This document shows, piece by piece, positions 8,784-61,914 of a DNA stretch of 64,000 bases. Origin of the DNA: Eledone cirrhosa. Taxonomy: Eukaryota. The stretch spans positions 45,570,001 to 45,634,000 of the forward strand of contig OZ024750.1 of assembly GCA_964016885.1 (NCBI GenBank), read 5' to 3'. The stretch's first letter is position 1. Every line of letters starts with the position of its first letter. Under the pieces are notes generated by a model. That model was not told the origin of the DNA and ran no database searches. It saw nothing but the letters and a program-made list of their open reading frames with translations. The position numbers were made by a program, and so were the translations under genes.

Positions 8784-8859
8784 AAATAAAGGATTATGAG
8801 TTCATGCAATTGACTTATGTTTCGTCACTACATATATTCGAACTTATATTCATGGAAAT

Positions 8860-9050
8860 TTGGGACTTGAGTCTTTCTTCCTCATTTTTCGTTGCTTCAC
8901 TATCTTTGTTTGTTTACACTCTCGTGTCCCCTTTATTAACGTGTCCCAACGACTTCTTTTAGCTGTTGCTCGCACCAACCGGAGGTATATCGTCTTTAAA
9001 GCAATGAAATACCAATGATGGTTGGAAGATAACTGATGAAGGACTAACTT
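8860..9050 (+). mobile_element. Family J element ending in the 5' half of a hammerhead core; inverted homologue at 10765-10990
   Basis: ACGTGTCCCAACGACTT..CGCACCAACC..TAAAGC.ATGAAAT.CC..GGTTGGA..CTGATGAAGGACT.ACTTT occurs in both copies, each truncated by (TA)n. Confidence 0.6.
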
Positions 9051-9076
9051 TATATATATATATATATATATATATA

Positions 9077-9215
9077 ATGGAAACCGAAACGTCACTGATG
9101 CATCGGAACTCAATATTTTGTGTCTTACAATTTTTTCCCCGGCGAGCAGCTCGAGGTGCGATCCGTGTGTGGATCTACCTGACTCTAGTCTCGCAGGTTC
9201 CTCAGACACGTCTAT
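9077..9215 (-). mobile_element. Family H-related element with degenerate hammerhead
   Basis: Homologous to 41646-41735. Minus strand CTGAGGA..long stem II..GAAA AAATTG TA. Confidence 0.55.
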
Positions 9216-9522
9216 TGATTTCGGATCATATCCTCTTTCTGGGGTTTTCTGGCTCTACAAGCCTATATCGTCCACCTTCATCCGCTGTGTGCGTCCTTGG
9301 GTTGGTCATTTGTTAGTGACGTCATCATTATTCTGACCACTTGTAGCAGCTCGCTGACCGTCAGGGCGTGAACTGTCACTCATCCACTGCCCCGTCGGAA
9401 GCATCTTAGCTACCATTAGACATATATGTGTGTGTGTGTGTGTGTGTGTGTGTGTGTGGGTGTGTGTGTGTGGGTGTGTGTGTGTGTGTGTGTGTGTGTG
9501 TGTGTGTGTGTGTGTGTGTGTG

Positions 9523-9727
9523 TAACAAAGAAAGTAGGGGTAAGAAACCAGGTGTACCATAACGCACCAGAATACTCGATACTAAGGGTAGTAGAGTGGG
9601 TAAGGGGAAAAGAGTCAGGACCCCGACGGCTGAACTCCGGCCGTTTCGACAGCTAGAACCGAACTGTTCAGATCTAGCTGTCAAAACAGCCGGAGCTCAG
9701 CCGTCGGGGTCCTGACTCTTTTCCTAT
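9523..9727 (-). mobile_element. Family A' fold-back copy
   Basis: Arms GAAAAGAGTCAGGACCCCGACGGCTGA..GACAGCTAGA / TCTAGCTGTC..TCAGCCGTCGGGGTCCTGACTCTTTTC. Confidence 0.75.
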
Positions 9728-9760
9728 GTATATGCATATATATATATATATATATATATA

Positions 9761-9900
9761 CGTTATTCTGGGTTGAGTCGGAGGTAACCATAGTAAGTAA
9801 GGTACTCAATACATAGCAGAGTATAAAAGTTTTAATATAGATGAGATTATACAGGACTAGAACTGTTTCATTCTTTAGAAATCATCAGGAATCTGGGTAT
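9761..9900 (-). mobile_element. Family X element with hammerhead-like core
   Basis: Minus strand CTGATGA tTTC-taaa-GAAt GAAA CAGTTCTAG TC. Homologous to 60047-60247. Stem I is not convincingly paired. Confidence 0.55.
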
Positions 9901-57689: not shown

Positions 57690-58260
57690 CGTAAAAGAAT
57701 ATAAGAATAAACAATACCCTTTGTCATAATCTCTGCAAGTCTGTGATTTGAGGTCAGCTCTCACAACCTCTGCCCAGGTATTTCTTTGTCTACTTCTACT
57801 GCGGCTTCCTTCCACTGGCATTTCCTGACAATTCTTCACCCAACGCATTACATGTTCGTACCAATGCAGTCTTCCCTCCTGCATCCCACCTTGGATTCCT
57901 TTTAAACCTAGCTTCTCTCTCAGCTCGTCCAAGCTCTGCCTTTCTCTTACACTTGAATCACACATCCAACGGAGCAAGGTTGCTTTATTTCTCTCCAATC
58001 TATGCATGTCCTCTGCAGTCACAGCCTATGTTTCACTATCATGCAGCATTGCACTTCGTACACAGGCGTCATGCAGTTGTCCTTTTGTACGTAGGGAGAA
58101 ACCGTTTGTGGTCAACAGTGAGAGTAGATGTCTGAAACTATTCCATCCTATACTTATTTTAGTTATGTGCACCGAACACCACCCTGCTCCATTGCTAATT
58201 ACATTACCTAGATAGCAGAGGCTATCAACCATTTCTATGGGTCCTTCCTGTGACAGGAAT
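57690..58260 (-). mobile_element. Decayed RTE LINE 3' part related to the 22583-25526 element
   Basis: GPIEMVDSLCYLG..GW..FR.LL.LL..GFSLR..G.L.DACVR.AMLH.SET..RLERN.A..LRWMC aligns by eye with the C-terminus of the intact ORF. Confidence 0.88.
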
Positions 58261-60046
58261 AGGTTTACATCTAAACAAATAACCAACATTTATTAATGAT
58301 GTTCTAAATAGTGACTTAATTTCTCGATCTGCTTTTTACACATATGACTCTGTTATCTACCAATAATAATTTAACACTTTATATTCTTGAGGGAGGAATG
58401 AGGCATCCTTCCTAGCAAGATTACAAGAAAATATGAGAAACATATTACATGTGACATGGCTAAAACCATGAGAAAGCCAGTGAATATCACCATTCGAAAT
58501 CCACTATTTATATTTCTAATACAAGCCCGTCAAATTTTATCCGATTTATCTAGTTTATTTATATATCAATTTGCAATGACTGAAATTATACGTCACATTG
58601 AAGTGACTACATTAATGAAGGATCTGTATTCGAACGCCATCTTGGGTGCATAAATCTCCGCCATCCAAAAGTGTGTTTCTTGCAGCTAAAACTTTAATAG
58701 ATAAATCCTCTTTTCTAATGAAGACACGAAATTCTGCTGCGAAAAGCTTGAAAATGCCGCTTAAATATGGTCTCCTCTAGTTGTTCCTGCTATTTACATG
58801 TAACTCTGTTCTGGGGACTATTTGGTGTCTCGTGATAGGCAACATTTACGCGACTATCCCACTAATTATTATGAAGAAAAAGAAGAAGAAGAAGAAGAAG
58901 AAGAAGAAGAAGAAGAAGAAGAAGAAGAAGAATGATGTCCTCTTTCCCTGAATTAATACAAGAAACGTACATTGAAACGATCGTATAGAACAGCATTAAT
59001 ATATAAATCAGATATGTATATATTGCATGAGTTAATGTCTCAATAAAGCTACGTAGCTCACATTAGAATATATCTGAATACTAGTATATATATATATATA
59101 TATATATATATATATATATTTATATGTCTGTGTGTGTGTGTGTGTGTGCACATGCATCAATATATATATATATAGAGAGAGGGATAGATAGATATTTGTA
59201 TGATTGTATGATTGTATATAAATATATATAAAACCTTTTCCATGACTTTATCTTAATATGATTTTCTTAGCTATCTCACGAGATTTTCTTTTAAAATATT
59301 TGCGTCAAATAACATTCTTTGAGAGTGCCTTTGTATCTATTAGAGTAAGACATTTAACAGTTTGCAAATCATCCATTTATAACAAAAAAAAACCGTAATA
59401 TTACACACACACACACACACACACACACACACACACACACACACACACACACACACACACACACACACACACACACACACACACACACACACACACACAC
59501 ACTCACACACACACACACACACACACACACACATATATATATATTTATAAATATATATATATATATTTATAGAGAAAGAGAACAGAATTTCACTGCTGAA
59601 AGGAATATAAAAGTGTATACTTTATTATTCCAGTAAATCCCACGATACAAAACAAGTAAACATACCATTATATTTGTTAGAACACATAATTGGTGAAAAC
59701 ATATCTACACATATATTGATAAGTGTTGATCTATATGCAGTTATATTCATATGTACGTATGAAATGTTTACAGTGAATATCTAATACGAATATACGCACA
59801 CTTTAACACACAGGCAATTAAATATGTATATATATATATATACATACATATATATATATATAGATATATATTTAATTACCTCTACCATATATATATATAT
59901 ATATGTGTGTGGGTGTATATATATATATATATATATATATATATATATATATATATATATATATATATATATATATATATATATAGAGAGAGAGAGAGAG
60001 AGAGAGAGAGAGAGAGAGAGAGAGAGAGAGAGAGAGAGAGAGAGAG

Positions 60047-60247
60047 AAAAGCTTCTACAGGAGTAGAACTGTTTCATTCGTGAGAAATCATCATTTGTGA
60101 GAAATCATTATTTGCGAGAAATCATCATTCTCACGAATGAATCAGACCTAGTCTTGTAGAAGCTTTGCTATATTAAAACATTTATACTCTGCTGTGTATT
60201 GAGTACCTTATTTACTATGTTTACCCCCGAATAAACCCGGAATAACT
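60047..60247 (+). mobile_element. Family X fold-back element with a triplicated 17-mer at its centre
   Basis: Arms AAAGCTTCTACAGGA..TTCATTCGTGAGAA / TTCTCACGAATGAA..TCTTGTAGAAGCTTT; tail matches 9761-9840. Confidence 0.7.
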
Positions 60248-60656
60248 TATATATAAATATATATATACAGAGGGAGACAGGGCGGAGATTTCCAAACATA
60301 TTATTATACATACCTTATATATATATATATATATATATATATTCACATACATACTTACATATATATGCATAAATATCAAAGTATATATAGACATTCAAGC
60401 ATCTTCGACTGAGTTTTTGTGTCTATGTGGTGATGGTGTTGTACGTGTGTGCGTGAGTGTGTGTAGATGGTGGGGTACACATGTGTGAGTGTTTGTATGT
60501 TTTTTCCATGTGTTTCCGTGTGTGTAGCATGTCTGTGTTAGAAGCCTAACAACGTAGCAACGTTTCTTAAATATCTATATACATATATATATGTGTGATA
60601 ATTTGCGTATTAATACATACAGATCTGTAAACGCTTCTGTATATGTTTATGTCACG

Positions 60657-60826
60657 TTGGTAGAGGGTCGGACGCCATGCTTTGCAGCACAGTTACGTCC
60701 CTTTCCGAACTGAGTTCAAATCCCGCCGAGGTTAACTTTGCCTTTCATCCTTACTGGGTCGATAAAATAAAGTACCAGTAATACACTGGGATAATTGCTG
60801 GCCTTGTGCCAACTGTAGAAACAATT
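60657..60826 (+). mobile_element. SINE
   Basis: Consensus match. Confidence 0.88.
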
Positions 60827-60934
60827 AAGTACATATACGCACATACATACTTGCATACATACTACCTAGGTACATAGAAGCAAACATCACACATACCACA
60901 ACACACATAAATAAATAAATAAATAAATATATAT

Positions 60935-61307
60935 GTAAATATCTTTAAGTCGTTTAGAAGCCTCGACAATGCAAATGGGTAAATCTCCGGGTAACAAGGT
61001 CCGGTGGTGGAGAGAGAGATGTAATTGGGTGTATGTTGAGATGCGGAAAAAAAAACCCAGTTGATTGATGTGAATCCGAAATATATAGGGACTATTAAAT
61101 CTCTCTCAAGGTAACTCTCTCTTGTGTTGTTATTTTTATTTTAACCTTTATACTCTTCCCTCATTCTACACATCTCACACATCTTATACACACCACGCAT
61201 CTCAACATACACCCAATTACATCTCTCTCTCCACCACCGGACCTTGTTACCCGGAGATTTACCCATTTGCATTGTCGAGGCTTCCAAACGACTTAAAGAT
61301 ATTTACT
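60935..61307. mobile_element. Family F element with ~110-bp inverted copy of its 3' end
   Basis: Arms 60935-61044 / 61196-61307; ATCC GAAA TATA TA GGGACT in between. Confidence 0.8.
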
Positions 61308-61914
61308 TATTGTTGCACAATGCTTCAAGCAAATTTCAATACTCTCTTATAAATATATATATATATATATATATATATATATATATATATAAATATATCA
61401 AAATATATATAGACATTCAAGTATGTTCGACTGAGTGTTTGTGTCTATATATATATATATATATATATATATATATATATATATATATATATATATATAT
61501 ATATATATATATATATATAAGTTAAAACAATGAAATAAAAATTCATAACTGTCTTACTTTTGATGTTTTACTGTTTTCCGGGATTTGTTTTTACCTACAA
61601 CATTTTCAACATATGGATTATATTGAGTTCTTCATGCAGATTAGACCCCAGAACTTACCGTGGATATTTATGTATATATATATATATATATATATGTATG
61701 TATATATCTATATGAATATATAAATATATATATATATATATATATATATATATATATATATATATATATATATATATATATATATATATTTATATATGTA
61801 TGTATATTTATATATGTATGTATATATATATATATATATATATATATATATATATATATATATATATATATATATATATATATATATATATATATATATA
61901 TATGAATATATATA

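Follow-up and report, generated by a model that had tools for sequence, protein, structure and literature searches.

The 64,000-nucleotide stretch of the Eledone cirrhosa genome analysed here (contig OZ024750.1, forward-strand positions 45,570,001 to 45,634,000; hereafter 'the window') contains copies of Penelope-like elements (PLEs) of the Hydra clade inserted at (TA)n junctions. In these elements a small bulged hairpin occurs twice, in tandem, and each end of an inserted copy lies a few bases 5' of either the first or the second hairpin. Given that the hairpins lie just beyond both end points, they likely tell the reverse transcriptase (RT) where to start copying, and we consider it likely that the twin hairpins of Hydra-clade RNA are docking sites that set two internal starts of reverse transcription. 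The tandem hairpins, the two-sided changes in their base pairs, the end positions, and the occurrence of one short and one long end per insertion are established observations. The Hydra clade and the two-ended insertion pattern were already known. The presence of the twin hairpin at both ends appears to be undescribed: no prior description was found in the parts of the PLE literature searched, and Repbase entries and subscription papers, which lay outside that scope, may bear on its novelty.

A bulged hairpin in element tails

A sequence-only reading of the window had proposed that a GAGT(A/G/T)C motif is shared by unrelated repeat families, 28-60 nucleotides (nt) before their 3' (TA)n junctions. 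All 12 hexamers that it cited are present where it placed them, and mapped junctions place the element end 28-58 nt further on. The motif forms the 3' strand of a small hairpin with a bulge, RCUC-Y-[loop]-R-UN-GAGY, usually followed by ACU, in which an upstream RCTC pairs with GAGY and the next base pairs with the purine that precedes a two-base bulge starting with T. Ten of the cited hexamers belong to this 3' strand, nine with the upstream partner and one (61625) without; the other two (8798 and 9106-9111) are chance look-alikes (Table 1). Minus-strand positions had been quoted by their low coordinate, and the GAGCCC variant of family M occupies 26881-26886.

The source genome comprises 3.0 Gb of AT-rich sequence that is crowded with (TA)n runs. 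Flanks of TA junctions were cut from 114 arbitrary 10-kb stretches outside the window (1.14 Mb) and from the window itself, yielding 1523 flanks that were grouped into 132 families and 790 singletons. Enrichment was assessed in 732 non-redundant flanks, each of at least 130 nt, from outside the window, and here the position of the motif proved to be constrained. RTN-GAGTDC occurs 19 times at 30-85 nt, where 2.3 ± 1.7 matches are expected and no more than 7 were seen in 100 shuffles, and GAGTDC alone occurs 34 times at this distance (16.1 ± 4.5 expected, shuffle maximum 33). The top gapped 7-mer is GAG.GCT, and GAGTGC is the top hexamer among those that are not AT-rich. In 400 kb of arbitrary stretches with 397 TA junctions, 20 of the 49 GAGTDC matches within 130 nt fall at 50-59 nt. 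Genome-wide, the distance from motif to end spreads over approximately 31-82 nt.

Some facts would be compatible with a chance hexamer, a codon pattern (I/V-E-Y/C/F), or residual homology between tails that can be aligned. On its own, the hexamer shows no enrichment across the window (67 matches versus 55.2 ± 7.9 after shuffling, with 7 of 100 shuffles as high), GAGTTC by itself is not enriched in the 732 flanks (8 versus 6.7 expected), two cited sites are due to chance, and the families share descent. However, the excess of 19 over 2.3 was found in non-redundant flanks, where the synonymous-codon variants GAA and TDT are not enriched (5 versus 5.1 and 6 versus 4.3 expected), and the motif lies upstream of the ATG of the element. 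Moreover, among 24 member representatives picked from 44 groups with a loose motif match, only 3 of 276 tail pairs align significantly downstream of the motif and 9 of 276 upstream. All three readings are refuted by the enrichment, hairpin and tail-alignment data, and we regard them as scarcely credible. Given the enrichment in outside flanks and the three downstream alignments, the two outcomes named in advance as fatal to the proposed motif, namely a lack of positional enrichment or families alignable along the whole tail, were therefore not observed. That the signal is common to unrelated families is correct insofar as the tails do not align, but the families are distant relatives within the Hydra clade.

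An abundant repeat with a GAGTTCAAAT stretch, which we take to be tRNA-like with a B-box, provides many of the GAGTTC matches in the window without any link to TA ends. An origin of the motif from a B-box or a short interspersed element (SINE) was dropped for this reason. None of the 150 listed Rfam matches in the window (of 202) reached the gathering score.

The base pairs of the hairpin were counted with anchored scripts, given that a MAFFT alignment of 30 hairpins put the 5' strands out of register and mis-cut two rows. In the source genome, where counts were read from the commonest form in each of the 24 representatives, the partner strand is present in 22, with a bottom pair of A-T in 18 and G-C in 4, and a closing pair of T-A in 14, C-G in 6, T-G in 1 and a mismatch in 1. 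The gap between the strands measures 10-77 nt. An alignment of homologues (n=47) led to a second source, comprising 78 metagenome loci (the best 78 of 374 confirmed) in 52 clusters, 48 of which have a clear ATG. Their flanks contain 137 GAGCNC matches; after 21 without an upstream GCTC were dropped, 70 de-duplicated hairpins from 40 clusters were left. The pair above the bulge is T-A in 22 and C-G in 43 of these (65/70 together), and the first bulge base is T in 67. On a FastTree phylogeny of 31 open reading frames (ORFs) with 36-80% identity and 26 labelled tips, from which published Hydra sequences were left out, all five closing-pair changes of hairpin 1 are two-sided. The A-G label at locus L184 in this tree is a nearest-partner error; the closing pair of its hairpin 2 is C-G.

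Among the metagenome clusters, 17 combine a hammerhead core with one or more strict hairpins before the ATG, and in 14 of these two tandem hairpins, spaced 57-83 nt apart, lie between the hammerhead and the start codon; two further clusters have the core without a strict hairpin. The 5' flanks (17.0 kb) hold 81 strict hairpins and the 3' flanks (31.0 kb) hold 28, compared with 3 on the antisense strand of these 48 kb and 20 in the matched ORF range (166 kb). Inspection by eye of published consensus sequences located both hairpins in Hydra-1_Ajap and hairpin 1 in the tails of Hydra-2_Amil and Hydra-2_Ajap. Thus, PLE tails from other sources carry the hairpin as well.

Stems are kept while loops grow: in family D (L098, L261) the loops reach approximately 65 nt in hairpin 1 and, with TA-rich repeats, approximately 100 nt in hairpin 2, and another family (L277) has a hairpin 2 loop of approximately 55 nt. 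In the source genome, hairpin 1 has mostly changed to ACTC/GAGT (A, B, C, D, H, I and X in the window) and hairpin 2 keeps GCTC/GAGC (L127, L261, L275, L277), which is the form at both positions in metagenome elements. The two sites may differ in affinity. Helix III of several published Hydra hammerheads reads ACTC-n-GAGT, equal to the four lower-stem pairs of hairpin 1 (PMC8557442 File S2).

Two end points beside two hairpins

The ends of inserted copies are of two kinds, short ends approximately 0-11 nt 5' of hairpin 1 and long ends at the same distance from hairpin 2. In families A, B, D and M and in three other families, hairpin 1 follows the commonest short end after 2-9 nt; several rarer families have no usable short ends. 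This distance is stable whatever the loop length, with the two strands of hairpin 1 starting 17-77 nt apart. Hairpin 2 (GCTCC ... G-TN-GAGC) is missing from inserted ends, and begins 6-11 nt past the long end in all four families that have a run-on copy (A, D, M and F23), where the first 3-6 of those 6-11 bases match the TA run. Hairpin 1 lies within the long 'tail'. The distance of 28-60 nt is thus the spacing from hairpin 1 to the start before hairpin 2, which is not copied. The motif had also been suggested to be a ruler, a notion that fails because the ends follow the 5' strand of the downstream hairpin and not a count from the motif.

Family G provided an out-of-sample prediction. Of its 13 copies, 11 stop in TA at a shared point, one passes into a different element, and one (L323) continues; in this last copy the hairpin lies 7 nt past the common end, as predicted. 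Among the metagenome loci with both repeats, 32 were comparable, of which 11 stop at a contig end, one is a tandem run-on and 20 have mapped junctions. Fourteen of these 20 end 0-11 nt before a hairpin (binomial P ~2e-6 at a chance rate of 0.2).

Two-armed insertions couple the two kinds of end. In eight families, 56 of 58 such insertions have one short and one long end, among them all 10 in the window; their lengths range from 101 to 2230 nt, and the outer ends are sharp while the inner joints vary. This pairing bears on the possibility that the hairpins are RNA cleavage sites, with a nuclease of the host or the element cutting the RNA a few bases before the stem and the RT then starting at the free RNA 3' end, as in long interspersed elements (LINEs). 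The short, fixed distance of the ends from the stem base would fit such cutting, as would an anole element whose RNA sequencing read ends coincide with the tail ends (PMC11167929). However, two independently cut RNAs would hardly yield the combination of a short with a long end seen in 56 of 58 insertions, and extra 3' sequence left the start in place for a Poseidon element in vitro (PMC11167929). We therefore judge cleavage to be rather improbable.

Composition could in principle explain the ends by itself, given that the 8 nt before the hairpin are approximately 82% A/T. The hairpin would then be a promoter, translation-control or hammerhead-folding signal of the pseudo-long terminal repeat (pLTR), and the ends would lie nearby just via AT-rich, TA-like pairing with the target. 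In 16 of 17 clusters, the hairpin nearest the ATG stops 15-42 nt short of it, and pLTRs hold internal promoters (PMC8557442, PMC3846280). Yet the region is AT-rich throughout and the ends cluster at two stem bases only, and the two-sided pair changes, with partners 10-77 nt apart, argue against a double-stranded DNA motif. The anatomy of the element likewise lends no support to the core promoter or 3'-processing roles that had been listed for the motif. Thus, we find this explanation very unlikely, and the hairpin may have an added role in translation.

One hammerhead family lacks the hairpin altogether. It is represented in the window at 1935, 62117 and 63693 (61917-62500, 63226-63884) and also at L293, has a tail of approximately 60 nt, and is linked to an ORF with CX4CxxC and CCHH motifs (Neptune/Nematis-type). 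This family may account for some of the families (E, F, K and L) in which the sequence-only reading saw no motif. In its run-on copy, TATCG follows both ends, and this could be a different start signal.

Carriers of the hairpin

On sequence diagnostics, the hairpin carriers are PLEs of the Hydra clade. Five of the nine families cited (A, B, C, D and M) are linked in cis to Hydra-clade RT-endonuclease genes. In the window, a 5'-truncated two-armed insertion of family D retains an endonuclease fragment, a hammerhead-type motif and the tail (Table 1), and hammerhead-type copies of this family are intact at other genome loci. With the endonuclease fragment as the genome query, 38,724 first-look candidates were obtained, 150 of these were scored, and long RT-endonuclease frames were recovered. 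The tails of B, C, D, M and one more family follow differing endonuclease ends that are 30-50% identical to that of D, and the family A tail runs on into an ORF start.

Family D has a single short ORF encoding an RT with a C-terminal GIY-YIG endonuclease, as do 42 related metagenome ORFs of 625-736 amino acids. Among the latter, the N-terminal RW[KR] motif is present in 41, [KR]R-x-RW in 31 and the CxCx5C linker in 39, and the position of the DKG motif reads DKT in 33, DKS in 8 and DKG in none. Families A, D and M have RWR, families D and M have DKT, and family D has the CxCx5C linker. The CCHH motif of the endonuclease is absent from family D ORFs by eye, and hammerhead cores and helices are seen by eye near the 3' end of elements inserted into (TA)n junctions. 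All of these features (RW[KR], DKT, the CxCx5C linker, the lack of CCHH, a short single ORF, a hammerhead and (TA)n targets) agree with the Hydra clade as described by Craig et al. 2021 (PMC8557442), and three of six published consensi have the canonical hairpin. In the sections of that account covered here, the clade is described with hammerheads only, without a twin hairpin, the tail is put down to endonuclease resolution, and tails measure 30-40 nt versus approximately 60-130 nt here. A first assignment to Neptune was dropped after the Hydra diagnostics: neither the CX2-5CxxC linker nor CCHH was found in family D, and the CX2-5CxxC pattern occurs anywhere in just 4 of the 42 ORFs.

The best fold match of a homologue structure model (pLDDT, a per-residue confidence measure, 87.7) is TERT, and the fold search did not locate an RNA-binding site. 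A Pfam scan of two family D ORFs returned no families, and PF26215 is present in most homologues. No relative was found in a single-protein metagenome scan, and none in viral contigs.

Many copies of family M (e.g. L275) have a 713-codon open frame at the N-terminal match, which suggests a young family. Downstream of 8119 at L145 (+), a Hydra-type endonuclease end is followed by a tail that shows just a variant hairpin, GTT-GAGTCA, approximately 100 nt from the end. At 4618-4976 of the window, a 199-bp head-to-tail duplication of the family B tail has hairpin 1 in each unit. Elsewhere in the window, 5173-6883 and 47679-49342 hold an 86-bp satellite of approximately 20 copies and a 15-bp GT-rich array of approximately 115 copies, and 22331-25228 (+) holds a 965-codon open frame with endonuclease-like and RT-like parts that resembles an RTE-type LINE.

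Table 1. Hairpin copies, look-alikes and related features of the window
Feature	Positions	Strand	Remarks
Hairpin 1, family A (ACTC-T ... A-TC-GAGT + ACT flank)	14267-14293	+	long arm of two-armed insertion 14155-14337
Hairpin 1, family B (ACTC-C ... G-TA-GAGT)	14968-14995	+	long arm of insertion 14623-15046
Hairpin 1, family C (ACTC-C ... G-TC-GAGT)	25783-25805	-	long arm of insertion 25726-26253
Hairpin 1, family D (ACTC-TG ... CA-TT-GAGT)	52514-52597	+	loop ~65 nt; long arm of insertion 52082-52640
Hairpin 1, family D	31414-31493	-	long arm of insertion 31372-33274
Hairpin 1, family H	41823-41850	+	long arm of insertion 41595-41895
Hairpin 1, family I	35267-35283	-	very short loop, T-G closing pair, weak copy
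Hairpin 1, family X	60186-60207	+	
Hairpin 1, family M (GCTC/GAGC)	26880-26928	-	closing pair broken here, T-A in other copies
Hairpin 1 3' strand, diverged D-like copy	61622-61631	+	no 5' partner found
Hairpin 1, family A, uncited copy	117-143	-	
Hairpin 1, family B, uncited copy	4682-4709	+	second at 4881-4908
Hairpin 1, family X, uncited copy	9801-9822	-	
Hairpin 1, family A, uncited copy	15087-15113	+	
Hairpin 1, family A, uncited copy	18169-18195	-	long arm of insertion 18124-18298
Chance GAGTTC, not the motif	8798-8803	+	upstream of family G short end; true hairpin of G absent from copy
Unconserved GAGTTC, not the motif	9106-9111	-	upstream of short end, H-related family; true hairpin after end (locus L005)
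5'-truncated two-armed Hydra-type insertion, family D	31372-33274	-	endonuclease fragment, hammerhead, tail
CxCx5C linker + GIY-YIG endonuclease fragment, family D	31922-32119	-	
Hammerhead-type motif, family D	31560-31690	-	upstream of hairpin 1; CTGAAGA core at 31682; second core box mutated here
tRNA B-box-like repeat	30803, 37093, 37586, 38110, 51091, 53700, 60712 and others		

How the twin hairpins may direct insertion

Our preferred reading is that the RT-endonuclease, probably as a dimer, would bind both hairpins on one RNA and cut both strands of the (TA)n target. The 3' ends of the target would each pair with the 3-6 TA-like bases just 5' of a hairpin and prime a complementary DNA (cDNA). 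The cDNA started at hairpin 2 would copy hairpin 1 and become the long end or 'tail', the one started at hairpin 1 would copy no hairpin and become the short, inverted arm, and the two would be joined at variable inner points. The earlier proposal of a cis signal for the RT or endonuclease is thereby upheld in that the signal is conserved and recognition by the RT is its likeliest role; its unit is the bulged hairpin, not the hexamer. Hairpin 2 is missing from the long end, so that making further long ends would require a template that supplies it again, either a transcript that reads through head-to-tail copies or an RNA circle produced by the hammerhead, a step that we infer only. A general proposal along these lines was made by Cervera and de la Pena (PMC4209133). 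The window's short two-armed copies would be truncated, dead-end derivatives of coding master elements.

A fuller version of this scheme is possible, and we offer it tentatively. A dimeric, telomerase-related RT would carry out double-ended target-primed reverse transcription from one RNA, with one TAR-like hairpin per subunit and one cDNA per cut TA end; the hammerhead would circularise the transcript and so return the uncopied hairpin 2 behind the ORF; and the cassette of approximately 100 nt alone would direct the insertion of any upstream cargo.

Several observations weigh against the docking-site reading. Six of the 20 mapped metagenome junctions lie 21-98 nt from the hairpin, 2 of the 24 family representatives have no partner strand, and families G, H, I and X showed no link to any ORF in this analysis. 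The predicted probability of the closing pair in its local context is 0.30, versus 0.70-0.72 for the lower stem. By eye, the Hydra-1_Crog and Hydra-1_Obim consensi carry variant forms, one without the bulge U, and the Hydra-1_Amil consensus stops before the hairpin. The hairpin-less CCHH-type family keeps the short/long rule in 8 of 9 insertions; this rule thus extends beyond elements with the twin hairpin and cannot by itself establish that the hairpin brings about the ends. Finally, the inner wobble pairs (G-U 18 versus A-C 14) do not settle the strand.

Given that the wobble counts do not tell on which strand the hairpin acts, it might function on the other strand or in DNA, either as a stop on an antisense template or as a single-stranded DNA or cruciform structure beside the GIY-YIG cut that resolves an intermediate. 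The tail has been ascribed to endonuclease resolution (PMC8557442); in Drosophila Penelope, the endonuclease needed the tail for recognition (as cited in PMC11167929), and rotifer Penelope has been suggested to use an antisense template that primes itself (PMC3846280). On the other side, the one PLE protein that has been purified initiates within the pLTR-ORF RNA, at the ends of the tail, and extends both strands of the target (PMC11167929), and sharp outer ends with variable inner joints are expected if copying starts at the outer ends. We consider action in DNA or on the opposite strand to be an unlikely alternative to docking on the sense RNA.

The closest experimental parallel to the docking-site reading is the Poseidon-clade element PAc (Frangieh et al. 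2024, PMC11167929), whose protein cuts and extends both strands of an AT-rich target, has two internal start sites delimiting the tail, and is a predicted dimer. PAc belongs to another clade, however, and starts in an AC-rich stem-loop inside the ORF, with a binding motif bracketed to 172 nt; by eye, the PAc RNA stretch in Fig. S1 of that paper has no R-UN-GAGY hairpin. The bulge invites comparison with the arginine sandwich motif of HIV TAR and 7SK ASM3 (PMC6189040), which shares a purine, a bulge U, and G-A-G paired with C-U-C-pyrimidine. The positions described there are A22, U23, G26, A27-U38 and G28 in TAR and A39, U40-U41 and A43-U66 in 7SK, and the Hydra hairpin has the same local arrangement, with a bulge pyrimidine after a paired purine, then G-C and A-U pairs. 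By analogy with TAR and 7SK, the conserved U of the bulge would be expected to take part in a U.A-U triple and in an arginine pocket, for which the [KR]R-x-RW motif of the protein would be a candidate contact. The loop of the Hydra hairpin closes on the other side, making it a permuted version, and the likeness is a predicted pattern that implies no homology.

The 3' stem-loop of stringent LINEs of the eel UnaL2 type reportedly lies upstream of the RT start point and is copied. In contrast, Hydra elements have two hairpins, each located downstream of the respective start, and hairpin 2 is never copied; the stringent LINE arrangement of a hairpin inside the copied 3' tail and upstream of the RT start is thus not found here. 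The likeness to UnaL2 and to SINEs of this kind consists in a small, conserved hairpin that contains an internal loop and sits near the 3' end; in those elements it is reportedly required for retrotransposition (PMC1636434).

These findings address open questions about PLEs, the sister group of telomerase, namely how they recognise RNA and why insertions have an inverted arm and a one-sided tail. The twin hairpins could account together for the tail, for the inverted arm and for a dependence on tandem or circular templates, and would hence give the hammerhead a role. A 25-nt hairpin that is kept across proteins with as little as 36% identity, twice, and at both ends presents an exact target for mutation, binding and structure work. 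The hairpins also supply a simple rule for finding true element ends and for assigning orphan repeats to the Hydra clade, and they may be a portable signal for RNA-templated insertion.

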